From assembly GCA_947627395.1 (NCBI GenBank), contig CANQVW010000001.1, positions 16,807 through 40,806 on the forward strand: 24,000 nucleotides of DNA. The letters run 5' to 3'. Positions 472 through 23,155 of the stretch are shown piece after piece. The notes below the pieces were generated by a model. That model was not told the origin of the DNA, searched no databases, and was given only the letters and a program-made list of their open reading frames with translations. Positions within the stretch are counted from its first letter, which is position 1, and every line of letters starts with the position of its first letter. The position numbers and the translations under genes were made by a program. This stretch comes from an uncultured Bacilli bacterium. GTDB taxonomy: Bacteria; Bacillota_I; Bacilli_A; ML615J-28; CAG-698.

Positions 472-765
472 ATGAGAAAAGAAAGAAATGTAATCAAAGC
501 AATGTTCATTGCTGCTGCTATTTTTGCGGCAGTGGGTCTAATCTGTTTTATTATCAAAGGTGTTGAATACATGATGAGAGATGTATCACCAAAATGGATC
601 AATACCGTAACGATTGTTGGTATTGTAGCGTTTGTTGTTGCGGTAGTTATATTAGTTGGAATCATCATTTTTGCGTCTATTGTTGATAAAGAGAATGTCA
701 ATCATCCGAAAAAGAGCGATGAAGAATTGCTAGCTCAGTACAAATCAAATAAAAATAGAAAATAA
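472..765 (+). CDS. Small hypothetical membrane protein (two predicted TM helices, charged C-terminal tail)
   Basis: RBS TAGGAGG at 461-467 precedes ATG 472. Two hydrophobic stretches are present ([19 protein letters not shown] and [25 protein letters not shown]). It ends 10 nt before fba, so it is probably co-transcribed with it. Confidence 0.6.
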
Positions 766-1649: not shown

Positions 1650-1678
1650 GCAGTGATATAAACATCACTGCTTTTTTT
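1650..1678 (+). terminator. Rho-independent terminator after fba
   Basis: 8-bp perfect stem GCAGTGAT (1650-1657) / ATCACTGC (1664-1671), a 6-nt loop, then T7 (1672-1678). Confidence 0.8.
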
Positions 1679-1685
1679 ATCTCAT

Positions 1686-1714
1686 TTGACAACCAATTTA
1701 AAATATACTATAAT
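1686..1714 (+). promoter_or_regulatory. Sigma-A-type promoter for the first zinc-ribbon/TM operon
   Basis: Consensus TTGACA (1686-1691), 17-nt spacer, consensus TATAAT (1709-1714). It lies inside the ORF-track N-terminus, which argues for the ATG at 1749 as the true start. Confidence 0.7.
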
Positions 1715-1748
1715 GTATATAGATTTGAACCTAAAAAGGAGGAAAAAG

Positions 1749-2660
1749 ATGGATTTATATTGTATATGTCCTGTTTGTGGACAAGAAATCATAGCCAAAG
1801 AAGAAATCATTGCATGCCCAAATTGTAAACAATCCTTTGATATTCATAGTGCTAAGCAAAAAAATCACTTCAATAACCATATTGAAAAGAAAAAAAGAGA
1901 TTGTAGAAATTTCTTTTTGAATCAACAATTTCAAGATGTTATCTATTTTGCTGAAGATATCTTGAAAGAAGAGCCAAATAACATGCTTTATCGTTACTAT
2001 TTGTGTATTGCATCTTCAAAAAATAAGTCCTCTGTACAAAAAGATTTTCTTCGATTTCAAAATTATACAGGAACAGATGAAGAAATAAATGAAGTATTTT
2101 GGTACTTAATTGAACAAAAAGATCGTTTTCCATTAGAGTATTTAAAAGAGTTTCTTACCTTTTATCATGCAGATTCAAAATATCTAGATATTTTATCTAA
2201 AGATGAACCTGAAAAAGAAAAAAAAATCGAAAAAGAATTAAAAGAAACTTTATTTTCTATGATTCCTATTATCAATACGTCTACAAAATTATCTTCCAAT
2301 AAACAAGATGGAATATTTTTTATTGGAATAGCTGTTGTTTTAGGATTGATATTTTGGCTTATCGGCCATTTCTTTGTTCCAAAATATATTATTTATCCTT
2401 CTTTTATCTTTTTAATGATTTTTCCTTGTGTTTTTTTAGCTTGTGGGATCACAAGAATTGTTTTTAAGCGAAAAAATAAATTATATCAACTTCTCTTTTT
2501 CATTCTCCTTTTTTATATTGTGACATTTATTGTTACAATTCCTTATCACTCTTCAGGTTTTTTTTCATCATTGGGGAAGCATTTTATATCCATTTTTACA
2601 TCCCCTTATGATTTTGTGAAAAATTTAATTAAACATATAGAGGAGATTCCAATCGAATGA
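1749..2660 (+). CDS. Hypothetical protein: N-terminal zinc ribbon, helical cytoplasmic region, three C-terminal TM helices
   Basis: RBS AAAGGAGG at 1735-1742 precedes ATG 1749. The N-terminus has CPVC-x13-CPNC (nt about 1767-1829). TM stretches are GIFFIGIAVVLGLIFWLIGHFFV, FIFLMIFPCVFLACGI and LLFFILLFYIVTFIVTI. I recognise no enzymatic motif. Confidence 0.75.
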   Translation: MDLYCICPVCGQEIIAKEEIIACPNCKQSFDIHSAKQKNHFNNHIEKKKRDCRNFFLNQQFQDVIYFAEDILKEEPNNMLYRYYLCIASSKNKSSVQKDFLRFQNYTGTDEEINEVFWYLIEQKDRFPLEYLKEFLTFYHADSKYLDILSKDEPEKEKKIEKELKETLFSMIPIINTSTKLSSNKQDGIFFIGIAVVLGLIFWLIGHFFVPKYIIYPSFIFLMIFPCVFLACGITRIVFKRKNKLYQLLFFILLFYIVTFIVTIPYHSSGFFSSLGKHFISIFTSPYDFVKNLIKHIEEIPIE

Positions 2661-3256
2661 GTATTAGATATATCAATGAATATAGAGCATTATTATCCAA
2701 AATAAATATAGAAAAAGAGAAGTATAGTCAAAAATTATTGAATAAAAATTTGGAAAATGAAAAAGAAATTCGTTTGTTAGAAGAAGAAAAGCAGCGTCTA
2801 AACGTTCGTTTTGTTATTTATTGTGGTGCGTTTTTTGTTTTGTTTGGTGCCTTTTATCAATTACTAGGGTACTTTGATGTGCAAAAATATGCTTGGATAG
2901 GATTTGTAGTTGGTGTATGCGGTGCATTATACTTTATTATTAAACTGATTTTAGACACAAAAAAAATTAAAAAACTTGAAGAATCTGATCAAAATCAACT
3001 TCAAGCTGAAGACAATATACGCCAAGAAATTCAAAAATTAAATGTGGAAAAGATGAAATTAATTCTTTTTATTATTTGTTTGAATGAACATTTCTATGAA
3101 TTATCCTCCATTCAAGACACAGAAGAAAGAAAAGCATGTTGGCTTAAGAAAAATTATCTATGGATTGAAGCAATACAAAGAAAGTATGGATATCACGCAA
3201 CCATTGAAGAATATGAAGAATATTTTGAAGAATGGAAAAGTAAAAAAGATTCATAA
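2657..3256 (+). CDS. Hypothetical coiled-coil / TM-hairpin / coiled-coil protein
   Basis: ATGA start/stop overlap with the upstream gene, with AGGAG at 2641-2645. Heptad-like charged N- and C-terminal segments (EKEKYSQKLLNKNLENEKEIRLLEEEKQRL and ESDQNQLQAEDNIRQEIQKLNVEK) flank two hydrophobic helices. Confidence 0.65.
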   Translation: MSIRYINEYRALLSKINIEKEKYSQKLLNKNLENEKEIRLLEEEKQRLNVRFVIYCGAFFVLFGAFYQLLGYFDVQKYAWIGFVVGVCGALYFIIKLILDTKKIKKLEESDQNQLQAEDNIRQEIQKLNVEKMKLILFIICLNEHFYELSSIQDTEERKACWLKKNYLWIEAIQRKYGYHATIEEYEEYFEEWKSKKDS

Positions 3257-3292
3257 TGATTACATAAAATCATAAAATAAAGCATATTCTTT

Positions 3293-3598
3293 ATGGGTGA
3301 ATATCATAAAATGTTACTTATTTGGTTAATTTCAATGTTACTCTCTTTTATTTTGTATTGGATATTTGGGGATATTGTCCTTTTCATTACAATTTTAGGA
3401 GTTGCCATCACAGTTTATATCTTAAAAGGAATTAAAAAGCAAAGCTTCATTTATTTAGAAGTGATTTTACTTGTAATTTATGGCCTTTTATCATTATTAT
3501 GTTTAATTTTTCCCTCTGCAATTACCCTAAAAGTTCTTGTCATTATCTTAGGGGTTTGGTTTATGATTTATATTTATGCTTACAAACGACTTTCATAG
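3293..3598 (+). CDS. Small hypothetical polytopic membrane protein (about three TM helices)
   Basis: Almost entirely hydrophobic. There is no clear RBS at ATG 3293, and an alternative ATG at 3311 has GGGTGA upstream, so the start is uncertain. Confidence 0.5.
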   Translation: MGEYHKMLLIWLISMLLSFILYWIFGDIVLFITILGVAITVYILKGIKKQSFIYLEVILLVIYGLLSLLCLIFPSAITLKVLVIILGVWFMIYIYAYKRLS

Positions 3599-3639
3599 GA
3601 ATATTAAAAGTAAGTAATAGCAAAAATAGGTAGGTTAAT

Positions 3640-4752
3640 ATGAAGAGATATTGTTTGAATTGTTCTACATCATTTCGTACTCATCAAGCATGTTGTCCAA
3701 ACTGTAATAAAAATGATTATTTTGAAGAGCATTTTTTCTATATTATTTTTCATGAAAAAAAGTATTTAAAAAAAGAATGGTATGAAATGACTACTTCTTT
3801 TAGAAAATTTAATGAAAAAGAAATAGAGTTAAAAAATCAGGGGCTTTCCCTTACCTTGACTCAAATTGAGCACATCATTTTTTGGAACGTAAAAAAGCAC
3901 ACGTTTTTGGGCAAAAATTTGGTAGCTGCTTTATTTTTGTTAATTTCATTAATAAGTTTTAGTCTCGGCGTATTTTTTCAATACAACGCAAATTTCGGGC
4001 TCGACCTAAAAAATCCACAACTTTTCATTTACTCTCTTTTTATAGGAATTTTATTTCTCATTTTGAGTTTTATTTTGTTCTATTTTTCATTTGTGAAAAA
4101 AGAGAAATTAATTTATACAAAAATAAGAGGTCAATTTGGATATAAAAGAATATCTAAAAAAGAGTATTTTAGAATGATAGAAATCTTTCAAAAAAAGATT
4201 CAAGAGAACTATGATTTATACCCCAACATCTATACAAAAAGATTACTTCTTAGACGGTTTGATTTAGATGATGTAAAGGACGTTTATTTATTTGGTAAAA
4301 ACCCGCATGTAACTCAGTATTTAATGTGGGAAAACTTTCAAAATGAAGAAGATGCTAGGCAAATGATTCAAAATGCTATAAAACAATATGAAGAAGGAAA
4401 AGAATATAAGCTAGCTATTGAAGAAAAGACCACAAAAAAGGTCATTGGATACATTGGTTTATCTAGATATGATTACTCATTATACACATGTCAAGTGGTT
4501 TATGCATTGAATGAATCTTATTGGAATCAAGGGTATATGACAGAGGCTTTGCAAGAATTTGTTTCTTATTTAGTAAAAACAGGAAAAAAGACAATTTATG
4601 CAGGACATGTGAAAGAAAATGCTCCTTCAGGAAAAGTTTTATTAAAATGTGGATTTATTCGTGATCAGAATCGTGATACAAGTTTAGTTATTCATGGAGA
4701 AGTGAAAGAAATATATCAATATATCTATCAGATTCAAAAAGAAAAAGTGTAG
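3640..4752 (+). CDS. Zinc ribbon - TM hairpin - GNAT (RimJ/RimL-like, Acetyltransf_3-type) N-acetyltransferase fusion
   Basis: The N-terminus has CLNC-x9-CCPNC (nt 3652-3705). Two TM helices fall at about aa 93-113 and 127-152. The C-terminal 170 aa (nt about 4228-4720) look like a RimJ/L-type GNAT: RLLLRRFDLDDVKDVYLFGKNPHVTQYLMWE, VIGYIGL, WNQGYMTEALQEFVSYL, NAPSGKVLLKCGF. Confidence 0.85.
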   Translation: MKRYCLNCSTSFRTHQACCPNCNKNDYFEEHFFYIIFHEKKYLKKEWYEMTTSFRKFNEKEIELKNQGLSLTLTQIEHIIFWNVKKHTFLGKNLVAALFLLISLISFSLGVFFQYNANFGLDLKNPQLFIYSLFIGILFLILSFILFYFSFVKKEKLIYTKIRGQFGYKRISKKEYFRMIEIFQKKIQENYDLYPNIYTKRLLLRRFDLDDVKDVYLFGKNPHVTQYLMWENFQNEEDARQMIQNAIKQYEEGKEYKLAIEEKTTKKVIGYIGLSRYDYSLYTCQVVYALNESYWNQGYMTEALQEFVSYLVKTGKKTIYAGHVKENAPSGKVLLKCGFIRDQNRDTSLVIHGEVKEIYQYIYQIQKEKV

Positions 4753-4778
4753 TTTTTTTCTACTCTTTTTCTTTTTTT
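4741..4778 (+). terminator. Rho-independent terminator closing the first zinc-ribbon/TM operon
   Basis: GAAAAAGTGTAG (4741-4752) pairs with CTACTCTTTTTC (4760-4771) over 12 positions with one T-T mismatch. The loop is T7 and a T7 tail follows (4772-4778). The 5' arm includes the stop codon. Confidence 0.65.
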
Positions 4779-4781
4779 AAA

Positions 4782-4810
4782 TTGAAAATTCCCATAAAAA
4801 CAGGTATAAT
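4782..4810 (+). promoter_or_regulatory. Sigma-A-type promoter for the second zinc-ribbon/TM operon
   Basis: TTGAAA (4782-4787), 17-nt spacer, TATAAT (4805-4810). The ORF-track ATG at 4811 abuts the -10 element, so the start is more likely ATG 4829. Confidence 0.7.
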
Positions 4811-4828
4811 ATGGATGGAAGTGAAAAT

Positions 4829-5617
4829 ATGAAACAAAAAAAGATTTATATATGTTCGTCTTGTGGATTTGAAACCAAAGAAAAAAATAAGACATGTCCA
4901 ATTTGCGGAAAAGAAATGAAATATGAAGAAAAAGATTTTACTGAATGTAATCCTACTCTTCCTAAATCTTTTTCAAACTCGGAAGAAAAAGATGTAAAAC
5001 TAAGTTATTATTGTCCTACTTGTCGAAAAGAAAGTCATCAAAGTATATGTATTTGTTGTAATACTGTTTGTTATTTATCTATCGAGTACCATAAGAAAAA
5101 AGCAATTGTTCCTAAAATAGATCATTTAAGCGATGTATATAATGAAGATGAACTTAAAGATATGGGTTATTTTTTAACACAAGAAGAAAAGAATTGGATA
5201 TATCATTATTATCGAGGTGCACACAGATTCTTTTATAAAAGAGATAAAGTAAAATTTGGAGTTTTCCTTTTTACAGCTTTATTAATGTATTTTACCTGTT
5301 TAGAAATTTTCTTTTATATGCAGGAAAAGGAATATTTATTTGTTGGTTATTTTGTGAATGGATTAGGAAATGGATTGTTTTTATTATTTTTAATATTGGG
5401 AATATGGTATTTGTTTGATGCAAGTATTGTTGAATTCAAAAAGATCCCCACGCAAGTTGCCTTGTTTGTGATGGTTCCAATGGTGATGCAAATCTTTTTA
5501 TGTATTTTTTTGAATGTTACAAGTCGATTTATGTTTATATCGGGATATATTTTTATGCTATTAACAGCATTTATTTATTTCATCTATGTATGTTGGTGGA
5601 AAAAACATGAAAAATAA
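4829..5617 (+). CDS. Hypothetical protein: two N-terminal zinc ribbons and four C-terminal TM helices
   Basis: CSSC-x10-CPIC (nt 4853-4906) and CPTC-x8-CICC-x3-C (nt 5012-5071), followed by four hydrophobic helices (FGVFLFTALLMYFTCLEIFFY ... FMFISGYIFMLLTAFIYFIYVCWW). Confidence 0.75.
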   Translation: MKQKKIYICSSCGFETKEKNKTCPICGKEMKYEEKDFTECNPTLPKSFSNSEEKDVKLSYYCPTCRKESHQSICICCNTVCYLSIEYHKKKAIVPKIDHLSDVYNEDELKDMGYFLTQEEKNWIYHYYRGAHRFFYKRDKVKFGVFLFTALLMYFTCLEIFFYMQEKEYLFVGYFVNGLGNGLFLLFLILGIWYLFDASIVEFKKIPTQVALFVMVPMVMQIFLCIFLNVTSRFMFISGYIFMLLTAFIYFIYVCWWKKHEK

Positions 5618-6041
5618 ATTAGTTTCTTTTATACTCGTGATTTATGTGATTTTAATTCTTGGATTAAGTATAGCGACTGCGTTTCGATTAAATTTAGTTC
5701 ATGGTTTTACCATTATAATGCAATCTATTTTTAAAAATGTTGATGTGAATCATCTTCATCGCTGGATTCATTTTTTATGTTTAATCTTGGTTTATATAGG
5801 ATTATCACTTCTTTTACTTTTATTTATTTTAAATTATACAGAACAAAAGCGAATACTGATATTTTATACTTTATTATCTTCATTGGCTATTGCAGCTACT
5901 TCTGAAGGAATCATCTCATTTCAAGTTCGGATTTCATGGATAGATTATATTGTTATAGTTTCATCCATTCTTTTCGGAATCTTTACTGGATTTTTTGGAA
6001 TGTCTATTTTAGTACATCATAAAACAAAATTAAAGAAATAA
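5607..6041 (+). CDS. Small hypothetical polytopic membrane protein (about four TM helices)
   Basis: ATG 5607 has GGTGGA 7 nt upstream and overlaps the end of the preceding gene by 11 nt. The ORF-track start at 5586 has no RBS. The sequence is hydrophobic throughout. Confidence 0.55.
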   Translation: MKNKLVSFILVIYVILILGLSIATAFRLNLVHGFTIIMQSIFKNVDVNHLHRWIHFLCLILVYIGLSLLLLLFILNYTEQKRILIFYTLLSSLAIAATSEGIISFQVRISWIDYIVIVSSILFGIFTGFFGMSILVHHKTKLKK

Positions 6042-6051
6042 AAAAAATAAA

Positions 6052-6080
6052 TTGTAAGTTTAAGAAAAGCATGGTATAAT
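6052..6080 (+). promoter_or_regulatory. Sigma-A-type promoter (extended -10) upstream of the lipoprotein gene
   Basis: TTGTAA (6052-6057), 17-nt spacer, TGgTATAAT (6072-6080). Confidence 0.55.
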
Positions 6081-6115: not shown

Positions 6116-8542
6116 ATGAAAAAAATAGTTTATGGATGTTTTTTTATCCTTACCATTCTTTTATTATTTGGTTGCCAAAATGGAAAATCAGATAGTTATA
6201 TTAAGATTGTTGGTGTGGATGAAATTGAAGTTCAAATGTCAACACAATTTGAACTTGAAACAAGTGATGATGTAGATTCATCTGAAGTTTTGTGGATTTT
6301 GAGCAATCCTAAAATTGCTACTTTAGAAGATGGTCTTTTTACAGCAAATGATTTTGGGATAGCAACTATTACGGCTGTATCAAAAAAGAATGCTTCTATC
6401 TATGATTCAAAACAAATTACTGTTGTTCATCCACATGTTCGTGATATTATTATTGAGGGAGAATCACAAATTGTGATTGGAAAAGCTGCGTATTTAACGG
6501 CAACTATTGTTCCAGATATGGCAGCTAGTGAAATTACTTGGACGAGTAGCGATGAATCGATTGCAACCATTTCTAATGGAGTTGTTATAGGATTAGAAGA
6601 AGGAGAAGTCACAATTTATGTAACTTGTGATGGTTTTACAAAAGCTTTTTTAATTGAAGTGATTTCTAAGCCATTAGAAGTAGTGATTACAGGGGAACAT
6701 CAAATGGTGTTAGGGACTGTTCAAGAATTAAAGTTCAATGTTGATGAGGTTATTCTTTCTTCAAATAATGAAGAGGTTGTTCAAGTTTCTGGGGATAATG
6801 TTATTGCGACCAAACAAGGAAGTGCGATTATTACAGCGGTGAATGCTGAAGATGAAAATGTTACAGGAACATTTGAAATTATTGTAAATGGATATTTAAA
6901 TCGTCCAAAATCAGCAACATCAGAAGAATTGAACCGAATCAATGAAATCATGGAGCAAATGACATTAGAACAAAAAATTGGACAAATGTTTATGATTGAA
7001 GCTTCATCTGAAAGAACTAATGCAGCAAATGGTTTACCAATTATTATTGATCGTGATCAAGGTAGTACAGAACAAAGTAAGCAATATACAATTCAAGAAT
7101 ATTTAGAAGGATACCCTATTGGAAACTTCATTATCAATGAAGATAATATGATTGAAGGTAGTGAAGTCATGGTTAGAGGTATTAAAGAATTATATAAAAT
7201 GGCAAAAGATACGACGAATATTTCTCCTTTAATGGCTTTTAATGAAGGAGATATGGGATATCATATACCTAAAGGATTTATTAATTTTCCTTCACATGCA
7301 GGTCTTGCGGCAATTCAAGACAAAGATTATACAGCTCAAGTAAGTCAATTGTATGCAAATATTTTGCAACAATATGGAATTAATTTAGTTATTTCTCCTT
7401 ATATTACCAATGATGATAGTCGATATTCTATGGATCCAGCTAAAAATGCTTTGTATGCTGGAATTACTAGAAATGAATATCAAAAGAATGATATCATTTA
7501 TAGTGCAGTTCTAGGATATAGCGATGGAAGTGGATATCAAAATTCTAGAAATCTTGAAGATTTAGAAGTAGATGAATTCTTTAATCTTCGCTCGGCAATT
7601 ATTTCAGGAATGCCAATGTTAACGATTGGAAATACCTATTATAATTATTTTGCTTCAACTCCAATTTTTCGAGAAAATCCATTTATTCAAGATTATATTC
7701 GAGATGAACTAGGATTTGATGGTGTTGTTTTTGTTGATCCAACAACAATGACAAATACAGCTCAATTTTATTTTGACACTTACACAGATATAGTCATAGA
7801 AGCGATTAATGCAGGTGTTGATATGATTGGATTCTATTTTAATTTCAATTCATGGAATAATTATAGAAATCGACGAATTTTAGAATCATTTGATGAAATT
7901 GTTGCTGCCGTAAGAGCTGGAACAATTTCCACAGAGCGTATTGATGAATCTGTATCTAGAATTTTACTTATGAAATTAAGATATGGTATTTTAGATAATC
8001 AAGAACCAACAGGTGGATTTAACTATCAAGAATATCAACCACTGTGTGAAGAATTAGAAAAGAAATGTTTTACGGCCATTGGAGATCACACAACCATTAA
8101 TAAAAGGCAATCTACTATGGTCATTTCTATACCTAGTAGTGTTATATATTCACCAACAGTGTTAAAAAATTTTGGTGACCAGTTTGCTTATTATTTCTCC
8201 GCTCATGGTTATGCAGATTATAAAGTATACTATTCAAATTTAAGTAATTATAATCAGATTTTAACTGATCTTGAAAATTATGATCAAATTATTATAGCAA
8301 CAAGTAATTTAAGAGTAGAGTACTATGGAAGATATTGTTTGTTAGTGCAAAGCATTTTTAGTACTCGTCCTGATGCGCTTATGATTGCCTTTAATTCCCC
8401 AGCAGATTATATGTATATAGATGGAGTCAAAAATTATATTTGCTTATATGGGGCGTATACTAATGATTTTGCTTTTTTAATGGATTATTTAAATGGTCAA
8501 GAAGAGGCTCAGGGAAAATTCCCATTAGATTGGAATAATTAA
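6116..8542 (+). CDS. Lipoprotein with three Big_2 (bacterial Ig-like) repeats and a divergent glycoside hydrolase family 3 (NagZ/YbbD-like) domain
   Basis: RBS AGGAGG precedes the ATG. The signal peptide has the lipobox LLFGC (Cys at aa 20). Three repeats of about 75 aa (aa 29-257, nt about 6200-6886) have Big_2-like patterns (ITWTSSDESIATIS..G.V.GLEEGEVTIYV). The GH3 N-terminal domain spans aa about 268-626 (nt about 6917-7993): MTLEQKIGQMFMIE, GINLVISPYI, ELGFDGVVFVDPTTM, RILLMKLRYGI. Confidence 0.85.
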   Translation: MKKIVYGCFFILTILLLFGCQNGKSDSYIKIVGVDEIEVQMSTQFELETSDDVDSSEVLWILSNPKIATLEDGLFTANDFGIATITAVSKKNASIYDSKQITVVHPHVRDIIIEGESQIVIGKAAYLTATIVPDMAASEITWTSSDESIATISNGVVIGLEEGEVTIYVTCDGFTKAFLIEVISKPLEVVITGEHQMVLGTVQELKFNVDEVILSSNNEEVVQVSGDNVIATKQGSAIITAVNAEDENVTGTFEIIVNGYLNRPKSATSEELNRINEIMEQMTLEQKIGQMFMIEASSERTNAANGLPIIIDRDQGSTEQSKQYTIQEYLEGYPIGNFIINEDNMIEGSEVMVRGIKELYKMAKDTTNISPLMAFNEGDMGYHIPKGFINFPSHAGLAAIQDKDYTAQVSQLYANILQQYGINLVISPYITNDDSRYSMDPAKNALYAGITRNEYQKNDIIYSAVLGYSDGSGYQNSRNLEDLEVDEFFNLRSAIISGMPMLTIGNTYYNYFASTPIFRENPFIQDYIRDELGFDGVVFVDPTTMTNTAQFYFDTYTDIVIEAINAGVDMIGFYFNFNSWNNYRNRRILESFDEIVAAVRAGTISTERIDESVSRILLMKLRYGILDNQEPTGGFNYQEYQPLCEELEKKCFTAIGDHTTINKRQSTMVISIPSSVIYSPTVLKNFGDQFAYYFSAHGYADYKVYYSNLSNYNQILTDLENYDQIIIATSNLRVEYYGRYCLLVQSIFSTRPDALMIAFNSPADYMYIDGVKNYICLYGAYTNDFAFLMDYLNGQEEAQGKFPLDWNN

Positions 8543-8657: not shown

Positions 8658-8733
<76 letters not shown>

Positions 8734-13063: not shown

Positions 13064-13244
13064 TGCAAATATTTATCAACCTGGTGACATCTTGCAATTT
13101 AAAAAAGTTCATCCATGCGGATCTTCTACATGGAAAGTTCTTAAAATTGGTGTCGATTATAAATTAGAATGTTGTGGATGTCAAAGACAAATCATTATTC
13201 CTAGAGTAGAACTTGCAAAAAAAGTAAAAAAGAAAATTGAATAA
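13056..13244 (+). CDS. DUF951 (YyzM-like) small protein
   Basis: AGGAGG at 13041-13046 lies 9 nt before ATG 13056. The sequence GDILQFKKVHPCGSSTWKVLKIGVDYKLECCGCQRQIIIPR matches the DUF951 pattern. It overlaps the end of mscS by 8 nt. The ORF-track start at 13017 has no RBS. Confidence 0.75.
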   Translation: MNNANIYQPGDILQFKKVHPCGSSTWKVLKIGVDYKLECCGCQRQIIIPRVELAKKVKKKIE

Positions 13245-17043: not shown

Positions 17044-17886
17044 ATGAGAACAGAGCAAGAAATGTTTGAATTAATTCATCGTGTTGCATATTGCGATGAA
17101 AGAGTACAAATGGTGTTTTTAAATGGGTCAAGAGCAAATCCAAATATTCAAAGAGATGAATATCAAGATTTTGATATTGTTTATTTTGTAACATCTCTTA
17201 TAGATTATATCAATCATCCCCAATGGATTGATGTATTTGGATCAAGAGTGATTTTGCAAATTCCCGAAAACAATGAAAATCATATTACATATTTAATGCA
17301 ATTTACTGATGGAAATCGTATTGATTTAACATTAATGACTTTAACATCTCTTTCTTCTTACTTATTAAAAGATACGCAAACGATTCTTTTATGGAATAAA
17401 ACAGATATAGATATTTTTTTACCTAAACCAACAGATCAATCTCATTGGGTTAAAAAACCTTCTTACGATGAATTCATCTCATGCATAAATGAATTTCATT
17501 GGGTATCTTTATATGTTGCAAAAGGAATTAATAGAAATGAACTTACTTATGCAATGGAACATTTAAATCAGATTTTACGACCTGAATATATGAAAATGAT
17601 CTCTTGGGCAATTGCCTCAAGGTATAAATTTCAAATCAATCTTGGGAAAAATTTAAAATTTATTAAAAACTATATTCAAGAAAAAGAAATGAAAACTTTG
17701 TTAGATACGTATTGTATCGCGAAAGCATCGTCCATTTGGAAATCATTACTATTAATGTTTGATTCATTTTCATCTTATTGTGATGAAGTTTCAAAATATT
17801 TTCATTATCAAATTCATTTAGAAGAACAAAAGAAAACAAAAGATTATTTGATTTATTTAAAAAATAGGAGAACAAAGCATGATTAA
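17044..17886 (+). CDS. ant(6): Aminoglycoside 6-nucleotidyltransferase family protein (ANT(6)/AadE/AadK-like streptomycin adenylyltransferase fold)
   Basis: Colinear with what I recall of ANT(6)-Ia/AadK: MRTEQEMFELI...DERVQMVFLNGSRANPNIQRDEYQDFDIVYFV (the nucleotidyltransferase GS...DxD motif), YLMQFTDGNRIDLTL, EFHWVSLYVAKGINRNEL, MISWAI, GKNLKFIKNYI. Confidence 0.85.
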   Translation: MRTEQEMFELIHRVAYCDERVQMVFLNGSRANPNIQRDEYQDFDIVYFVTSLIDYINHPQWIDVFGSRVILQIPENNENHITYLMQFTDGNRIDLTLMTLTSLSSYLLKDTQTILLWNKTDIDIFLPKPTDQSHWVKKPSYDEFISCINEFHWVSLYVAKGINRNELTYAMEHLNQILRPEYMKMISWAIASRYKFQINLGKNLKFIKNYIQEKEMKTLLDTYCIAKASSIWKSLLLMFDSFSSYCDEVSKYFHYQIHLEEQKKTKDYLIYLKNRRTKHD

Positions 17887-19594
17887 AAAATTTATTCAAT
17901 ATTACAAGCCACATCGAAAACTCTTTTTTATGGACATGATTTTTGCATTTATTGTATCAGCAATTGATCTTGTTTTTCCTATTGTTACCAATCGAGCTTT
18001 AAAAGTTTATTATAATGATATGAAAATGATTCTAATCATTGGAGCTGTTTTACTTGTTTTATTTTCAATTAAATTTTTACTAAATTATTTCATTGGGTAT
18101 TATGGTCATGTTATGGGAATCCGTTTAGAAAGTGATATGAGAAGTGATTTATATAAAAAGTTACAAAGTATGGATTATCCATATTTTGATGACAAAAAAA
18201 CAGGCGAACTCATGACCAATTTAACAACGCACTTACATGACATTTCAGAAATGAGTCATCACGCGCCGGAAGATATTTTCATCTCATCATTAATGTTTAT
18301 TGGAAGTTTTGTTATTTTGATGATATTAAATTGGAAACTTACTTGTATTGCCTTTGTATGTTTAGCTGTTTTAGTTTGGTATTCTTTAACTAGACGTATA
18401 TCAATGCGTAGAGGATTTCGCCATGCAAGACAAGCTCAGGGTGAATTAAATGCGAAAGTAGAAAGTAGTTTAAGTGGAATTCGTTTAACAAAAGCATTTC
18501 AGAATGAAGAATTAGAAGTTGAAAAATTTGAGGAATACAATGAAAAGTTTAAAAGTGCACGCTCAGAAACATTTAAAGCCATTGGATTATTTTCTTCAGG
18601 AAATGATTTCTTTTTAAATTTAACCAATTTAGCACTGCTCATTTTTGGATGTTATTTTTTATCTAAAAACGATATTGATTTAATTGACTTGACAACTTAC
18701 TTTTTATATATCAATTTTTTAATTAAACCATTGACTCGTTTAACAAACTCAGTGGAACAAATTGAACAAGGTTTTTCAGGAATTGAAAAGTTTTATCAAA
18801 TCATGCAAGAAAATCCTCAAATTGTTAGTCATCCTAATGCTGTTCATAAAACGGAATTTGAAGGACAAATTGAATTTAAAGATGTGTGTTTTCAATATGA
18901 ACAAAAAGAAGGAATCCACATTTTAAATCATTTTAACTTATGTATTCCAAAAGGTAAAAAAATAGCTTTAGTTGGGGAAACAGGGGTAGGAAAATCCACC
19001 ATTTCTAAATTGGTTCCTAGGTTTTATGATGTAACCTCAGGAGGAGTTTATGTAGATGATGTCAATGTAAAGGATTATGATTTAAAAGATTTAAGAAAAG
19101 CAATTGGACATGTTGAACAAGATGTATTTATTTTTTATGGAACAATACGTGAAAATATTTTATATGGAAATCCTAAAGCATCGGAAGATGAAATGATTGA
19201 AGCAGCAAAAAAAGCAAGAATTCATGAGTTTATTATGACACAACCTGAAAAATATGATACAATAGTAGGAGAAAGAGGAATTAAACTTTCAGGCGGACAA
19301 AAACAAAGAATTGCAATTGCAAGATTATTTTTAAAGAATCCTAAGATTTTGATTTTAGATGAAGCAACATCCTCTTTAGATAATATTACAGAAACATATA
19401 TTCAAGAATCCTTAGATGAACTTTCCAAGAATAAGACCACCATCACCATTGCTCATCGTCTTTCCACAGTACGAAATGCGGATGAAATTATTGTTTTAGG
19501 AAAAGAAGGAATTATTGAAAGAGGAACACATCAAGAATTATTAAGCCACAATGGATATTATGCACATATGTATTCAGCAACACTTATGGTTTAG
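17879..19594 (+). CDS. ABC exporter half-transporter (MsbA/multidrug-type, fused TMD-NBD)
   Basis: AGGAG lies 8 nt upstream, and the gene overlaps the ant(6) stop by 8 nt. Motifs: Walker A GETGVGKST, LSGGQKQRIAIARLFLKNPKILILDEATSSLD, and IAHRLST. Confidence 0.9.
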   Translation: MIKKFIQYYKPHRKLFFMDMIFAFIVSAIDLVFPIVTNRALKVYYNDMKMILIIGAVLLVLFSIKFLLNYFIGYYGHVMGIRLESDMRSDLYKKLQSMDYPYFDDKKTGELMTNLTTHLHDISEMSHHAPEDIFISSLMFIGSFVILMILNWKLTCIAFVCLAVLVWYSLTRRISMRRGFRHARQAQGELNAKVESSLSGIRLTKAFQNEELEVEKFEEYNEKFKSARSETFKAIGLFSSGNDFFLNLTNLALLIFGCYFLSKNDIDLIDLTTYFLYINFLIKPLTRLTNSVEQIEQGFSGIEKFYQIMQENPQIVSHPNAVHKTEFEGQIEFKDVCFQYEQKEGIHILNHFNLCIPKGKKIALVGETGVGKSTISKLVPRFYDVTSGGVYVDDVNVKDYDLKDLRKAIGHVEQDVFIFYGTIRENILYGNPKASEDEMIEAAKKARIHEFIMTQPEKYDTIVGERGIKLSGGQKQRIAIARLFLKNPKILILDEATSSLDNITETYIQESLDELSKNKTTITIAHRLSTVRNADEIIVLGKEGIIERGTHQELLSHNGYYAHMYSATLMV

Positions 19595-19606: not shown

Positions 19607-20629
19607 ATGGCAAAAAAGAAAAAAGAACAAAATCAAACACAAGTCAATTGTAAGAAACAAATCAAAGAACAAAGAAATCAAAAAAGAAACATTTTCTGGA
19701 TTTGTATTGGCATTGGATGTTTAATCATTATTTTATTGATTATCGTTAGTAATGTTTTAGATGTTGGGGAAAAACTAAGAAGAATTAATCCATATTTAGA
19801 ATGGGGTTTTTACGCTTTATCTGTCATTTTGTTTTACGTATTAATTTTAAATCCATTACGTATTATTCTTTTTTCTCCTACTTTTTCTGTTGTCACTGTT
19901 GTGGATGAACAAAATAGAAAAAGTTATCGAGTTTATAAAAAAGTTGCTAGAAACATTATTAAAAATAATGATTTAAAAGATGAAGATTTAGCTTTATTAG
20001 AAGAGGGAATGGAACATAAAGAAGATTTACGTTTAGCTTTAAGCAAAGTATTTGATTCTTCTATTAAAAAAGCAATTAATAAAATTATTTTAGCCAATGC
20101 GAAAACAGTGTTTATTTCTACAGCCATTTCACAAAATGGAAAATTAGATATGATGACTGTTTTAAGTGTGAATTTAAAAATGATTAAAGAAATTGTTATA
20201 AAAGCTGGATTTAGACCTTCTTATGCAAAACTTGGAAAACTGAGTGTTCAAGTACTAGGAACTGCATTAATTGCGGAAACATTGGATGGACTTAATTTTA
20301 CAGATTTATTTCCAACGTCTACTGCGAATTATATTGCGGAAATTCCTTTAGTAAAACCGATCGCCAATAGTGTATTAAATGGATTGGGTAATGGATTATT
20401 AACACTTCGTATAGGTATTGTTGCTAGAAGATATTTATTTTCAGAAACTAAGCCATCTAAAGATGAAATTAGAAGAAAATCCATTAAGGAATCTGTAAAA
20501 ATGTTACCTTTATTGTTTAAAGAAGTATTAGCTTTTTTTCCACAAAAAATTATTAGATTATTCCGTAAGTCTAGAGAACAAGCAGAAAAAGCAGAAAAAG
20601 ATTTTTTAACAGAAGATGGTGCAGAATAA
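19607..20629 (+). CDS. YcjF/UPF0283 (DUF697)-like membrane protein
   Basis: Lys/Gln-rich N-terminus, two TM helices, then a C-terminal region that aligns by eye with E. coli YcjF. For example, GLGNGLLTLRIGIVARRY compares with GIGAGLLTARLGIKAMEL, and VFISTAISQNGKLDMMTVLSVNLKMIKEI with [27 protein letters not shown]. Confidence 0.55.
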   Translation: MAKKKKEQNQTQVNCKKQIKEQRNQKRNIFWICIGIGCLIIILLIIVSNVLDVGEKLRRINPYLEWGFYALSVILFYVLILNPLRIILFSPTFSVVTVVDEQNRKSYRVYKKVARNIIKNNDLKDEDLALLEEGMEHKEDLRLALSKVFDSSIKKAINKIILANAKTVFISTAISQNGKLDMMTVLSVNLKMIKEIVIKAGFRPSYAKLGKLSVQVLGTALIAETLDGLNFTDLFPTSTANYIAEIPLVKPIANSVLNGLGNGLLTLRIGIVARRYLFSETKPSKDEIRRKSIKESVKMLPLLFKEVLAFFPQKIIRLFRKSREQAEKAEKDFLTEDGAE

Positions 20630-20639
20630 AATAAAAAAG

Positions 20640-20663
20640 AGGAATCATCGTGATTCCTTTTTT
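20640..20663 (+). terminator. Rho-independent terminator after the DUF697 gene
   Basis: AGGAATCA (20640-20647) / TGATTCCT (20651-20658) with a 3-nt loop, followed by a T-run. It overlaps the ORF-track GTG start at 20650. Confidence 0.8.
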
Positions 20664-20718
20664 GCTATTTTTCTTTTTTTTATTTTGTTATACTCTTTTT
20701 ACTTTATGGAGGAGTATT

Positions 20719-22812
20719 ATGAATCGATATTTATATATTATAATGATATCATTGTTTGGCCTATTTAGTGTAAATCATATATTTACTTTTTCTTTTTATA
20801 TTCCTATTGTTACTTATTTATCTTTAAAAAATAGAAAATATTTATACTTAATGTTTCCTTTATCTTTTCTTGGAATGTATTTGTTTCACTTTACATTTTA
20901 TCTCCCATATGCTTTATTTTATGGAAGTTTGTTTTTATTCACTTTACTTCTTCGTAAAAATCATTTAATAGCTATTTTATTATATGATGTAGCAATGCAT
21001 ATCATGACTACTTTTTTATTAGAAAATATAAACTTTTTTTATTTCTTTTTATCTACTTTTATTTGTATTTTATGGTCTTTATTTATTTTAATATGTGATG
21101 ATAAGAGATCTATATATAGTATGGCTATGCTAGAAATGTTGATTTCCCTCGTATTAACACTTTCTACTATACAAATCAAAATTGAACAAATTCCGCTTGG
21201 ATTTTATCTTGGATTATATTTTTCTATGTACTTATCTAGTAAAAAACAAACCTTAATGAGCTTATTATTTAGTTTTATCCTCTTTTTTATTTTTACTTAT
21301 TTTCATATCACGTCCTATGGTTTCTTTTTTCCAATGGTTTGTTTTATTTATTTACTACCAAAATTATATAGTCGTTTTATTCCGTTATTTATGATTGCCA
21401 TTGGTTATTTCTTTTATCCCACTTTATTTCCGATATCCTTTTTTATAAGTTTATTAATTTTATTAGTTATTTTTGAAATCACTAGACCCATTATGATACA
21501 AACAGTGGAAGAAAAAAAAGAGATGAACCAAATTTATTTACAAGCTTACCACCAAGTAGAACAAGAGTTAAATTCATTTGCTCTGTTTTTAGATAAAATA
21601 TCGAACCAATTCAATAAAAAAGAAGATCATCAACTTCACAATCATATTGAAGAATTAATGAATTCATTTTGTTTTCGTTGTCCATCTAAAATGGATTGTT
21701 TTAAAAGAAATAAAAGTAAATTATATTTTTATTTTAAAAGTTTATTTGGGGAACATATTCATGAAGAAATTCATTGTCTCTATTTTGAAGAAATGAAAGC
21801 AAAAGCAGAATATCTTTTATCTAGAACAACTGCGGAAAAAAATACTTCCGATATTCCAAAATTTACGCAAAGCATATCTTACATTTTAAGACAATATAAT
21901 GTGGATCATTATCAAAGGGAAGAGATAGAATATCATCAATGTATTGAATTAAAGAAAAGATTCGTGCAGTATGGATATTCCATATCCTATTTTCAAGTTG
22001 AAAAAATATTTTTAACAGACTTCCAAATTGATGTTGGTCTGTATGGAATTGATTTTGAAAAAGAAAAAGAAAATTTATATGAGTTATGTCGTATTTTTCC
22101 ATTTCCTATTTCCTTAGTATATAAAGAACAAAAAAAGAATAAAACTTATTTTTCTATTCTTCCTAAAGTTTCTTATGATGTTCGTTATGGATATGGATCT
22201 ATTGCTTTACCTGGAAATCAAATCTGTGGGGACAATTATTTGGTTAAATTACAAGAAAATTCAAAAGTTCTTGCCATGATTTCTGATGGAATGGGAAAGG
22301 GTGCACAAGCAGGAATTGAAAGTGCTAGAACACTTCATCTATTAGATGAAATTACAAAATCACAAATGAGTCCCGAAACTTCTTTACAAATCTTAAATAC
22401 TTTTTATTATTTACAAGATGAAAATGAGCGTTATTCAACATTAGATTTTTTAGAAATTAATCGTTTTAATGGTGAAGCTTTTTTATATAAAGCTGGTGCA
22501 ACAACAACTTTTATTATGCATGAAGATGGAAGTTGTGACCGATTCGAAAATGAACAATTACCTTTTGGTTTTAATGAATTCATTGTTTCAAAAAAACTTC
22601 AACTCAAAGAAAATGATTTAATTATTATGGCATCTGATGGTGTTTTCGAGAATATGGAAAATGAAGATGAGTTAGAAGAATATATTCGGGGAATTCGCAT
22701 GATGGAACCACAAAAAATTACCTATGAAATTTTAAATTATGTTCGATATCATAAATCCATTCATTCCGATGATATGAGTGTGATTACTTTAAAAATGATT
22801 TTAGCGATGTAA
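20719..22812 (+). CDS. spoIIE: Stage II sporulation protein E (polytopic membrane PP2C phosphatase)
   Basis: GGAGGAG at 20708-20714 precedes ATG 20719. About 260 aa of repeated TM helices are followed by a central domain and a C-terminal PP2C/SpoIIE domain: CGDNYLV, MISDGMGKGAQAGIES, MASDGVFE, DDMSVITL. Confidence 0.85.
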   Translation: MNRYLYIIMISLFGLFSVNHIFTFSFYIPIVTYLSLKNRKYLYLMFPLSFLGMYLFHFTFYLPYALFYGSLFLFTLLLRKNHLIAILLYDVAMHIMTTFLLENINFFYFFLSTFICILWSLFILICDDKRSIYSMAMLEMLISLVLTLSTIQIKIEQIPLGFYLGLYFSMYLSSKKQTLMSLLFSFILFFIFTYFHITSYGFFFPMVCFIYLLPKLYSRFIPLFMIAIGYFFYPTLFPISFFISLLILLVIFEITRPIMIQTVEEKKEMNQIYLQAYHQVEQELNSFALFLDKISNQFNKKEDHQLHNHIEELMNSFCFRCPSKMDCFKRNKSKLYFYFKSLFGEHIHEEIHCLYFEEMKAKAEYLLSRTTAEKNTSDIPKFTQSISYILRQYNVDHYQREEIEYHQCIELKKRFVQYGYSISYFQVEKIFLTDFQIDVGLYGIDFEKEKENLYELCRIFPFPISLVYKEQKKNKTYFSILPKVSYDVRYGYGSIALPGNQICGDNYLVKLQENSKVLAMISDGMGKGAQAGIESARTLHLLDEITKSQMSPETSLQILNTFYYLQDENERYSTLDFLEINRFNGEAFLYKAGATTTFIMHEDGSCDRFENEQLPFGFNEFIVSKKLQLKENDLIIMASDGVFENMENEDELEEYIRGIRMMEPQKITYEILNYVRYHKSIHSDDMSVITLKMILAM

Positions 22813-23082
22813 AAAGGATTGATACCCTTTTTTAACTGCATAGACACGATATCCTTTTTTTCTTAGTTTTTTAGTTACTTCAACGCTTGTAATACCTCTT
22901 TCACATAAAAGATAGTAGTTTTGATGGACTATTAAAAAGAGGTTTGGTGAAGCAAGTAATTCATGTTCATCAATATGTATGGCACCAGGTAAATGAAATT
23001 GATCATATTCTTCTATATTTCTAATGTCAATGAGATTTGGATTTTTTATTTGTTCTAATTTTTTTATAGAAATTCTCTTCAT
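22801..23082 (-). CDS. Single-domain rhodanese-like sulfurtransferase
   Basis: LIDIRNIEEYDQFHLPGAIHI, and an active-site loop LCERGITS followed by KLRKKGYRVYAVKKGYQSF. AAGGG lies 8 nt upstream of ATG 23082. The ORF-track start at 23112 lacks an RBS. Confidence 0.75.
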   Translation of the reverse strand: MKRISIKKLEQIKNPNLIDIRNIEEYDQFHLPGAIHIDEHELLASPNLFLIVHQNYYLLCERGITSVEVTKKLRKKGYRVYAVKKGYQSFLHR

Positions 23083-23117
23083 TTTTTCATCCCTTACTAT
23101 TTTATTTTTCATTTCTA

Positions 23118-23126
23118 TGATATAAT
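23118..23126 (+). promoter_or_regulatory. Candidate extended -10 promoter for the regulator/lipoprotein genes
   Basis: TGaTATAAT at 23118-23126 in the divergent intergenic region. No convincing -35 element. Confidence 0.4.
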
Positions 23127-23155
23127 ATGTATTAGAAAGGATAAAGGTGAAAGAA

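Follow-up and report, generated by a model that had tools for sequence, protein, structure and literature searches.

Do six adjacent genes for membrane proteins, lying between fba and a surface lipoprotein gene in an uncultured low-GC Bacilli lineage, encode one complex, and what might their products do? The window, that is, the whole stretch of 24,000 nucleotides that was analysed, carries all six ORFs side by side on the + strand in the order O1, O2, O3, O4, O5, O6. A sequence-only reading could not place them in any described system, and curated family models match none of the proteins except O4: O1 has no Pfam or NCBIfam family, O2 no Pfam family and O5 no family match, while the window O6 has no Pfam match, VanZ included. 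We conclude that O1-O6 are real, vertically inherited genes for uncharacterised membrane proteins. With only a little more confidence than doubt, we favour an arrangement of three separable modules, O1+O2, O3+O4 and O5+O6, around a membrane-anchored acetyltransferase, O4, which probably N-acetylates at the membrane. The features on which the argument draws are as follows.

472..765, +: TM97, a 97-aa two-TM protein, conserved upstream neighbour (context, outside the six)
1650..1671, +: terminator-like hairpin with T-run, 3' of fba (scanner: 8 pairs plus TTTTTTT)
1686..1714, +: promoter P1, TTGACA-17-TATAAT (12/12 match)
1749..2660, +: O1, 303 aa; Cys4 zinc ribbon, TPR-like helical cytoplasmic domain, 3-4 TM helices
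2657..3256, +: O2, 199 aa; N-terminal coiled coil, 2 TM helices, C-terminal helical cytoplasmic domain
3293..3598, +: O3, 101 aa; small polytopic membrane protein with about 4 TM helices
3640..4224, +: O4, N-terminal half (the anchor); zinc ribbon, small beta domain, two-helix membrane hairpin, linker
4225..4752, +: O4, C-terminal half; GNAT (Acetyltransf_3, PF13302), predicted cytoplasmic
4736..4776, +: A/U-rich hairpin, putative terminator, overlapping the O4 stop codon (17-nt arms; inverted repeat I20)
4782..4810, +: promoter P2, TTGAAA-17-TATAAT (11/12 match)
4829..5617, +: O5, 262 aa; two Cys4 zinc ribbons, linker, 4 TM helices
5607..6041, +: O6, 144 aa; 4-TM protein, probably degenerate VanZ-like (Lipocone), by profile match
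6052..6080, +: promoter-like P3, TTGTAA-17-TATAAT, 5' of the lipoprotein gene (10/12 plus extended TG)
6116..8542, +: Big_2 plus GH3 surface lipoprotein (PF00933 8e-21, PF02368 5e-14; lipobox LLFGC; context)

Inheritance of the block with its neighbourhood

The gene order mfd, DegV, the 97-aa TM protein, fba, O1-O6, Big_2 lipoprotein, mnmG is shared with five related MAG or metagenome loci, and the wider conserved neighbourhood 3' of the six genes takes in the Big_2/GH3 lipoprotein, tRNA-Thr, mnmG, rsmG and parA. O1-O6 are complete and collinear in L004/L005, L007, L009 and L046, parts of the order recur in about 12 further loci, and the block is partly present in L002, L003, L008, L010 and L012-L021; the relatives' deposits are labelled Bacilli, Acholeplasmataceae or 'Tenericutes' MAGs. 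The conserved co-localisation of a lineage-specific membrane set, as proposed earlier, is thus recovered by neighbourhood comparison. Homologues of TM97 lie between DegV and fba in six loci (L004, L007, L009, L013, L014, L046), and in L043 the homologue stands immediately 5' of O1. Synteny with the housekeeping flanks extends to relatives at 76-95% fba identity, and the cluster proteins are 23-69% identical where fba is 86-95% identical.

It had been suggested that the block is an accessory insertion between fba and the lipoprotein gene. A horizontally acquired island, for example a defence or a phage-derived cassette, would agree with the unannotated proteins and with a total GC below that of the flanks (26.7% in the cluster versus 29.2% in the remainder of the window). 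However, the difference is confined to codon positions 1 and 2, where it reflects the amino-acid composition of membrane proteins; GC3 in the cluster (0.17-0.27) is equal to or slightly higher than in the flanks (0.14-0.19, leaving out two small flanking genes), so that the greater AT-richness noticed by the sequence-only reading holds for total GC but not for GC3. Furthermore, the block is collinear in relatives down to an fba identity of 76%, no flanking repeats were found around it, and no plasmid or phage DNA matched it. The PADLOC defence search returned only a weak match of the GNAT region to Cas11a (E 0.0026), and the sole strong match in the PHROG search was the GNAT domain, the others being weak zinc-ribbon or TM matches. 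We therefore regard acquisition as an island as effectively refuted.

Two transcription units

Judged by its promoter sequences, the block is predicted to be transcribed from two conserved sigma-70-type promoters, 5' of O1 and 5' of O5, both here and in L046, the species' nearest relative. The near-consensus promoters reported earlier at 1686 and 4782 match at 12/12 and 11/12 positions, and both are kept in L046 at the same positions with identical -35/-10 hexamers and diverged spacers; over the whole window, four matches with at most one mismatch were observed versus 0.74 expected by chance. The division into two units, also claimed before, is a layout common to this species and L046, and P2 is not present in L004, L007 and L009, which have O4 directly adjoining O5. 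The hairpin 3' of fba (dG -12.2, z -3.2) is replaced by a different one at the same position in L046. A hairpin does lie at 4736-4776 between the units (dG -15.2 kcal/mol, z -5.1), with a distinct T-run hairpin at the equivalent position in L046, but to call it a strong terminator is an overstatement, since it is A/U-rich and was not flagged by the consensus terminator scanner.

Three modules

O1 is preceded by an AGGAGG Shine-Dalgarno sequence and overlaps O2 by 4 nt (ATGA). An O2 homologue lies immediately 3' of O1 in 11/11 testable loci, including L043, which is without fba; L045 stands outside this count, its downstream ORF being a fragment at the contig end. O1 has 33 homologues among 1.84 billion representatives, and all four cysteines of its ribbon (C7, C10, C23, C26) are invariant in 24 sequences; its AF2 model (pLDDT 85) gave weak, TPR-like fold matches only. 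In O2, E144, L149 and Y189 are invariant (alignment A5). Proteins of the LapB/YciM type unite a rubredoxin-like Cys4 domain with TPR repeats and a membrane anchor. O1 resembles them in that elements of these three kinds occur in it, all cytoplasm-facing, but in reversed order (ribbon first, TM helices last) and with 3-4 TM helices versus one. No sequence similarity was found for O1, the sole LapB match being a sub-threshold one of the O5 ribbon (16 bits vs a cutoff of 363), and the lineage is Gram-positive-type, without LPS.

The O4 ORF (3640-4752, + strand, 370 aa) begins with a Cys4 ribbon (C5, C8, C19, C22), and Lys/Arg-rich segments flank its two TM helices. In the AF2 model of the anchor (alignment A1, mean pLDDT 87), strands occupy residues 2-64, helices 73-119, 126-152 and 173-191, and the hairpin 156-171. 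The fusion of a GNAT to this middle protein, already recognised by the sequence-only reading, is upheld by PF13302 (E 9e-29, 101 bits, cutoff 25.4). In L015-L020 separate ORFs, each of about 185 aa, encode anchor and GNAT; they overlap in five loci and abut in L017, whereas in the window clade they are fused. O4 is thus the product of a fusion of two adjacent genes that are still separate in deeper relatives. O3 immediately precedes O4 or, where the anchor is a gene of its own, that gene, and in L014 it precedes the GNAT; its homologues occur in L002, L004, L007, L009, L012, L014, L015 and L046, among which L002, L012 and L015 are without O1-O2. L014 keeps O1-O2-O3 and the GNAT with the anchor missing, and membrane tethering of the GNAT is therefore not obligatory.

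In Foldseek the O4 GNAT found 3fbu first (2.4e-12, TM 0.88), then RimL, MccE, PA3944 and RimJ, and PDB profile matches agree; it superposes on 3fbu, 1s7n (RimL), 3r95 (MccE), PA3944 and 3igr (RimJ) with TM 0.75-0.89. The known RimJ/RimL/MccE-type enzymes are soluble and about 170-195 aa long, whereas O4 has an extra 195-aa N-terminal anchor and falls far under the NCBIfam equivalog cutoffs (RimJ 36 vs 190 bits, RimL 29 vs 184 bits). A literature search found no membrane-anchored RimJ/RimL. Sequence does not single out one class of substrate for O4: among the enzymes nearest to it in structure, the targets of acetylation are ribosomal proteins, polyamines, microcin C or polymyxin.

O5 and O6 overlap by 11 nt, and their starts at 4829 and 5607 are backed by homologue alignments. 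O5 was found in six loci only (window, L002, L004, L007, L009, L046), always immediately 5' of O6, and the eight cysteines of its ribbons (C9, C12, C23, C26 and C62, C65, C74, C77) are invariant in seven sequences. The second O5 ribbon had been overlooked in the sequence-only reading. Six of the 12 members of the O6 family match PF04892 (best E 3.8e-18), and the profile of the close clade matches that of the VanZ clade over its full length (91%, E 1e-6). O6 shares its size and its four TM helices with the VanZ-2 family of Lipocone proteins (PF04892; Burroughs et al. 2025, PMC12419801), and by position its orthologues in relatives are bona fide VanZ genes 5' of the Big_2 lipoprotein; unlike that family, the window O6 has no direct Pfam match and does not retain the RKxxH, ExxQ and DxxxD motifs (as defined in PMC12419801), and is therefore probably non-catalytic. 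The 91% profile match together with position suggests that O6 is probably a degenerate VanZ-like protein. The Skillet-2 Lipocone has as its partner a zinc-ribbon TM protein encoded upstream (PMC12419801), a pair that resembles O5-O6, except that the partner there carries a single TM helix and a single ribbon versus four TM helices and two ribbons in O5. The Big_2 lipoprotein follows O6 or VanZ in L002, L004, L007, L009, L010, L015, L016 and L018-L020; in L002, O5-O6-lipoprotein is intact about 5.8 kb from O4, with an inverted dap operon between.

The architecture of a zinc ribbon followed by TM helices that had been described for three of the products is borne out by Cys4 ribbons located in O1, O4 and O5. 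Their conservation differs by family: invariant in O1 and O5, the ribbon is retained in 6/22 fused O4 homologues and in 5/6 separate forms. Because it has been lost from 16/22 fused homologues, it cannot serve universally as the interaction face that had been proposed.

Proposed function and alternative explanations

The most likely function that we infer is acetyl-CoA-dependent N-acetylation at the inner membrane face. With acetyl-CoA as donor, O4 would acetylate an amino group located on the inner side of the membrane. The target could be the cytosolic N-terminus of a protein that is nascent or resides in the membrane, or else an amine carried by a small molecule or a lipid head group, and the anchor half of O4 would position the enzyme at the membrane. 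The other five proteins would be non-enzymatic, exposing nearly only cytoplasmic domains, and are most plausibly scaffolds or intramembrane sensors. The working model for O4 is taken from the eukaryotic NAA60/NatF, a functional analogue only. NAA60 attaches to membranes by amphipathic helices at its C-terminus and not by a TM hairpin. In PMC4993997, NAA60/NatF is described as a GNAT at the cytosolic membrane face that acetylates cytosol-facing N-termini of transmembrane proteins.

The earlier proposal of a lineage-specific membrane-embedded complex stands as far as the lineage-specific membrane set is concerned, but one six-part complex is not borne out, as modules are lost or moved independently. 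That all six proteins form a single complex or sensor, with ribbons as the interaction or nucleic-acid-binding face and acetylation by O4 as the output, is in our view unlikely: the genes are contiguous and collinear in five loci (window, L004, L007, L009, L046), overlapping or closely spaced, and the O1 and O5 ribbons do not vary, yet parts have been lost or separated in L002, L003, L008, L010 and L012-L021 (O1-O2 are missing while O4 persists in L002, L012 and L015-L021), most fused O4 homologues are without a ribbon, a terminator and promoter split the block in this species, and O1, O4 and O5 have no detected similarity to one another outside the ribbon. At the other extreme, the genes may form no functional unit, being fast-evolving lineage-specific membrane genes that happen to lie close to mnmG and parA in a part of the genome that is stable. 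Co-localisation may partly be inheritance only, as gene order can persist uncoupled in small, slowly rearranging genomes; the flanks are syntenic to the same degree, the cluster proteins diverge far more than fba, and a shared known pathway is not evident. We nevertheless hold this to be quite improbable, given the overlapping start and stop codons in O1/O2 and O5/O6, the fusion/split relationship of anchor and GNAT, and the O3-O4 and O5-O6 adjacency that outlasts rearrangements (L002, L012).

Two further explanations assign a substrate. An envelope pathway acting on lipid or lipid-linked glycan head groups, in which a VanZ-type Lipocone enzyme, the tethered N-acetyltransferase and the GH3 (hexosaminidase-like) lipoprotein share an amino-sugar or lipid substrate and are regulated by the ribbon proteins, is rather unlikely. 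Anchor, GNAT, a CxxC lipoprotein, intact VanZ and the Big_2 lipoprotein adjoin in deeper relatives, the GH3 domain is weakly similar to the NagZ type, and lipid head groups are the predicted targets of Lipocone families, which are sometimes operonic with GNATs, with the one zinc-ribbon TM pairing noted above (PMC12419801). Against this, the window O6 is without the VanZ active-site motifs, the block holds no glycosyltransferase, flippase or lipid-synthesis gene, and VanZ chemistry is itself a prediction in PMC12419801. We consider detoxification or self-immunity very unlikely; here O4 would acetylate a toxic amine crossing the membrane, such as an aminoacyl-nucleotide, peptide or aminoglycoside-like antibiotic, and the membrane partners would add resistance. 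The GNAT fold is equally near MccE, PA3944, bleomycin acetyltransferase and RimL or RimJ, VanZ relatives are linked to glycopeptide resistance, and genes for ABC exporters and an ANT(6)-like protein are located downstream at a distance of 11-14 kb; however, resistance GNATs are no closer than ribosomal-protein acetyltransferases, the block is without biosynthetic, bacteriocin or regulator genes, and its conserved chromosomal synteny is unlike that of typical resistance cassettes.

Organization and transcription of the six-gene block

The anatomy of this six-gene block is clear; its function is inferential. All six plus-strand ORFs proposed in the sequence-only reading are present in the sequence, and they are listed here as O1 to O6.

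1749-2660, plus strand: O1, 303 aa; Cys4 zinc ribbon, helical domain, 3-4 transmembrane (TM) helices
2657-3256, plus strand: O2, 199 aa; coiled coil, 2 TM, helical domain
3293-3598, plus strand: O3, 101 aa; small polytopic protein
3640-4752, plus strand: O4, 370 aa; ribbon, 2 TM, GNAT
4829-5617, plus strand: O5, 262 aa; two ribbons, 4 TM
5607-6041, plus strand: O6, 144 aa; 4 TM

An AGGAGG Shine-Dalgarno sequence precedes O1, and alignments of homologues back the starts of O5 (4829) and O6 (5607). O1 and O2 overlap by 4 nt and O5 and O6 by 11 nt, with remaining gaps of 36, 41 and 76 nt. Hydropathy predicts approximately 3-4 TM helices in O1, two in O2, two in O4, four in O5 and 3-4 in O6. Since each sizeable soluble segment of these proteins either adjoins Lys/Arg-rich membrane borders or has a Cys4 motif, we infer that nearly all of the non-membrane mass is cytoplasmic. 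The block is flanked upstream by the genes for DegV and a 97-aa TM protein (TM97) and by fba, and downstream by the genes for a Big_2+GH3 lipoprotein and tRNA-Thr, mnmG, rsmG, and the genes for a ParA-type ATPase and an MscS-like channel. The mnmG-rsmG-parA content and a GC skew that is uniformly positive throughout the window suggest that the region probably lies near the replication origin, which is placed here from gene content and skew rather than mapped. Rfam and tRNA scans found no RNA gene inside the cluster.

Both promoters proposed from the sequence are near-consensus, with TTGACA-17-TATAAT at 1686 matching at 12/12 positions and TTGAAA-17-TATAAT at 4782 at 11/12; four matches with at most one mismatch occur in the window, while 0.74 are expected. 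The terminator proposed between them is partly borne out, as a hairpin is present at 4736-4776 (-15.2 kcal/mol, z -5.1), but it is A/U-rich and is not called by a consensus terminator scan. The best support for these putative regulatory signals comes from L046 (GCA_947627195.1), the closest diverged relative, whose fba is 95% and whose O5 is 57% identical to those of the window. In L046, a hairpin and T-run followed by a perfect TTGACA-17-TATAAT precede O1, and another hairpin and T-run followed by TTGAAA-17-TATAAT lie between O4 and O5; the promoter hexamers are identical to those of the window, and divergence is seen in the spacers, stems and leaders. O4 and O5 abut or overlap in L004, L007 and L009, which are deeper relatives, and no promoter sites of the window type were found where the two genes meet; in L004 and L009, a near-consensus site was found at neither the fba-O1 nor the O4-O5 junction. 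Therefore, on sequence comparison, we consider the two-unit layout to be real and limited to the subclade of the window and L046.

Composition and origin

The impression that the cluster is more AT-rich than its flanks holds for total GC (26.7% in the cluster, 29.2% in the rest of the window) but not for synonymous positions, which are not lower. GC3 ranges over 0.17-0.27 for the six genes, compared with 0.14-0.19 for the flanking genes apart from two small ones. The deficit is confined to codon positions 1 and 2, where it reflects the difference between membrane proteins rich in Phe, Ile, Leu, Lys and Asn and soluble ones.

It had been suggested that the block could be an accessory insertion between fba and the lipoprotein gene. 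This does not hold: the relatives are co-linear, GC3 is not deviant and a repeat search found no flanking repeats marking an insertion. Searches for a defence or phage origin gave little. The best match to the PADLOC-DB defence models was a weak one of the GNAT region to Cas11a (E 0.0026), together with one match of O5 (E 0.81); PHROGs returned, beyond the GNAT, just weak zinc-ribbon or TM matches, and no DNA similarity to plasmids or phages was found. Taken with GC3 and the lack of repeats, these results lead us to reject an accessory island, a defence locus and a phage origin. A mobile island would be marked by mobility genes or flanking repeats, by a deviant synonymous composition and by its absence from syntenic relatives, and these marks are not seen here. 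Flanks and cluster are co-linear in L004/L005, L007, L009 and L046, and we therefore conclude that the block was inherited vertically rather than inserted.

Conservation of gene order

We compared ~20 informative loci, obtained from O4-homologue look-ups and a scan with the O4 alignment (one genome per GTDB species) and annotated with profile HMMs. Nearly all are MAGs labelled 'Bacilli bacterium', Acholeplasmataceae or 'Tenericutes', with a few Bacteroidales or Chitinophagaceae. Three loci (L007, L016 and L022) were deposited as 'uncultured Bacteroidales' or 'Chitinophagaceae' despite Bacilli-type mfd-DegV-fba synteny or a related GNAT, and these labels are probably due to mis-binning or mislabelling.

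The full order of DegV, TM97, fba, O1-O6 and the Big_2 lipoprotein gene recurs in L004/L005, L007, L009 and L046, followed by mnmG wherever the contig continues. This neighbourhood comparison confirms the proposed co-occurrence and, with the promoters of L046, upholds the view that these membrane proteins are a conserved set, specific to the lineage and read from two promoters. The proposal of one six-part complex fares differently, as an obligatory unit is unsupported: O1-O2 are absent while O4 is kept in L002, L012 and L015-L021, and in L002 the O5-O6-lipoprotein unit lies ~5.8 kb from O4, past an inverted dap operon. In all 11 testable loci, among them L043, where the pair is preceded by TM97 instead of fba, and L008, where csoR-copA lies between O1-O2 and O4, the gene immediately after O1 encodes an O2 homologue; L045 was left out of this count as its downstream ORF is just a fragment at the contig end. 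The insert in L008 (7170-9880) encodes a csoR-like repressor and a copper P-type ATPase with HMA and E1-E2 ATPase domains, and it shows that the O1-O2 and O4 modules are separable. Where present, O3 is always directly upstream of the O4 N-terminal half (the anchor) or the GNAT, also in the otherwise different context of L012. O5 was found in the window, L046, L004, L007, L009 and L002 only, always directly upstream of O6 in the loci examined. Where relatives lack O5, the gene that comes after the GNAT instead encodes a conserved lipoprotein (~160-175 aa; L015:7502-8020, L008:11005-11532, L013:8985-9473 and homologues) that has both a lipobox and a CxxC motif. This protein has no Pfam match, is possibly thioredoxin-like to judge from its motif, and is mutually exclusive with O5 in the loci examined. 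Overall, gene order supports likely pairwise functional links within O1-O2, O3-O4 (with anchor-GNAT) and O5-O6-lipoprotein.

O4 is a predicted membrane-tethered acetyltransferase

In the curated libraries searched, only the C-terminus of O4 fits a curated family among the six proteins. The GNAT recognized there earlier stands, as residues 201-339 match PF13302 (Acetyltransf_3) with 101.4 bits against a gathering cutoff of 25.4 (E 9e-29). In the AF2 model (pLDDT 87), a ribbon with a small beta domain is followed by a long TM hairpin, then by a beta hairpin and a linker helix that leads to the GNAT, whose alpha/beta fold superposes on 3fbu (Foldseek E 2.4e-12, TM 0.88, rmsd 1.9). The closest structures are 3fbu, RimL, MccE, PA3944 and RimJ; the NCBIfam equivalog cutoffs for RimJ/RimL are not reached (NF008072, 36.1 vs 190 bits; NF007539, 29.1 vs 184 bits). 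About 28 full-length homologues share 29-46% identity, and W295, G298, N327, S330 and G331 are invariant across 22 homologues. On its predicted structure, we regard O4 as a putative membrane-tethered RimJ/RimL-type GNAT.

Zinc ribbons joined to TM helices had been seen in three of the proteins. They are indeed present in O1, O4 and O5, but the ribbon is not kept throughout the O4 family: the window has it, as do 6/22 fused and 5/6 separate homologues, so the GNAT family can do without it. Anchor (ribbon and 2 TM, ~185 aa) and GNAT (~185 aa) are encoded separately in L015-L020, by genes that overlap in five loci and abut in L017, while the two are fused in the window clade and L014 has a GNAT without an anchor. 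The occurrence of both split and fused forms serves as a natural 'Rosetta stone' tying anchor to enzyme, and it suggests that the enzyme is brought to the membrane by its anchor.

Ribbon families, O6 and rates of divergence

A word-indexed search with O1 found its own species cluster only, and an exhaustive HMMER search of 1.84 billion representatives was needed to find 33 full-length relatives (24-33% identity). All four O1 cysteines are invariant in 24 sequences and all eight of O5 in seven; both families have the two conserved CxxC knuckles of a Cys4 ribbon, and the zinc ribbon is predicted from these motifs. In its AF2 model (pLDDT 85), O1 consists of a ribbon, a TM bundle and, on the cytoplasmic side, about eight helices. 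The likeness of its central domain to TPR is weak (best Foldseek E 0.069 in PDB, local TM ~0.5 to 3-repeat TPR designs), and there is no Pfam TPR match. O1 and O5 were considered as paralogues, but their hhalign match (96.8%, E 2.6e-10) falls to 6.6% without the ribbons (reversed-sequence controls, ~1%), so the ribbon alone is common to both. A resemblance between the second O5 ribbon and the O4 N-terminus (BLAST E 0.003) was not upheld by profile comparison (5.9%). As judged by these alignments, the three ribbon families (O1, O4 and O5) share the ribbon only. No Pfam or NCBIfam model covers O1, O2, O3 or O5, which therefore define new families, limited to a poorly known lineage of uncultured Bacilli from gut and environmental metagenomes.

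A 22-nt motif (TGTCCnnnTTGnGGAnAAGAAA, 82% identity) occurs in three copies (1767-1788, 4895-4916 and 5012-5033), each coding the 'CPxCGxE' knuckle of an O1 or O5 ribbon; it may reflect common ancestry of the knuckles or codon convergence. A second, metagenomic contig of the same species (ERZ27249268, coverage ~2.3; L001 around 1230) is identical in the region save for a 49-bp deletion (window 4832-4880), flanked by short A-rich repeats, that takes out the first O5 CxxC knuckle and shifts the frame from the 4829 start. The deletion may be genuine or may stem from faulty assembly.

O6 of the window has no match to PF04892 (VanZ) at E <= 0.01 and no Pfam match at all, while 6/12 aligned relatives match PF04892 (best E 3.8e-18). 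The window clade aligns with the VanZ clade over 135/144 columns (hhalign 91%, E 1e-6), and O6 and its VanZ relatives occupy a common slot directly upstream of the Big_2 lipoprotein gene. Active VanZ-2 (Lipocone) proteins are defined by the motifs RKxxH (H2), ExxQ and DxxxD (H4) (PMC12419801). RKxxH and DxxxD are kept in L008 and L015-L020 and replaced in the window, L002, L004, L007, L009 and L010; unlike in active VanZ-2, the residues of all three motifs are lost from O6 in the window clade. Based on the VanZ relatives, the full-length profile alignment, the common slot and the lost motif residues, O6 is probably a degenerate VanZ-like protein, and O5-O6 would be a further case in which a VanZ/Lipocone domain, here apparently inactive, is coupled to a membrane protein with zinc ribbons.

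The genes diverge at very different rates. Identity between the window and L046 is 95% for fba, 69% for O3, 68% for DegV, 64% for TM97, 57% for O5, 51% for O4, 38% for O6, 36% for O2 and 33% for O1 (L046 O1-O2, 3844-5306). Other genome pairs at equal fba distance are more alike (O1, 49-63%; O2, 66-79%), so the O1-O2 pair is, by these identities, unusually diverged in the window species. The pair looks hypervariable or allele-swapped; accelerated evolution or allele replacement could account for this.

Possible function

The O4 GNAT is the sole predicted catalyst of the block. Two TM helices and a Cys4 N-terminus imply that both ends of O4 should be cytoplasmic, which fits with the need for acetyl-CoA. 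The most economical reading would be that O4 N-acetylates amino groups on the inner side of the membrane, with the cytosolic N-termini of membrane or nascent proteins, or the amines of small molecules or lipid head groups, as candidate substrates. Action on N-termini would parallel that of NAA60, which acetylates cytosolic N-termini on Golgi membranes (PMC4993997). If O4 truly acts there, it would be a bacterial membrane-tethered RimJ/RimL-type GNAT, and our literature search found none described.

Other readings compete with acetylation of N-termini or amines by O4. Leads from PMC12419801 point to an envelope head-group pathway combining Lipocone, GNAT and GH3 proteins, and the fold neighbours of the O4 GNAT are consistent with detoxification of an antibiotic or microcin; a third alternative is that the six genes form no functional unit. 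Going beyond O4 acetylation itself, a much bolder proposal, which we consider improbable, is an undescribed system in which intramembrane or cytoplasm-facing zinc-ribbon sensors (O1/O2 and O5/O6) control a membrane-tethered N-terminal acetyltransferase (O3/O4) acting on membrane or envelope proteins or lipid head groups, with the fast-diverging O1-O2 as specificity module. If true, this sensor-controlled system would give bacteria, and specifically Acholeplasmatales-related Bacilli, a counterpart of the NatF-type acetylation of organelles. It should be noted that the block bears on no long-standing question and that no phenotype is predictable from it; its value is mainly as a lead for annotation and structure-function work.

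Other features of the window

The GH3 lipoprotein gene and mnmG are 363 nt apart, with a tRNA-Thr (GGT) gene at 8658-8733 between them. A perfect TTGACA-17-TATAAT on the minus strand (13156-13184) falls within the 304 nt that separate the MscS-like gene from the ABC transporter genes; it is antisense and directed into the end of the MscS-like gene, with no obvious ORF after it. Farther downstream, an ABC exporter gene (17879-19594) starts just before the end of a gene of the ANT(6)/streptomycin adenylyltransferase family, which is of aminoglycoside-resistance type (17044-17886; PF04439, E 1.7e-90), so that the two overlap. Genes for a DUF697 protein, a 720-aa polytopic SpoIIE-type PP2C phosphatase and a PucR-type HTH protein are grouped downstream at 19607-23773.
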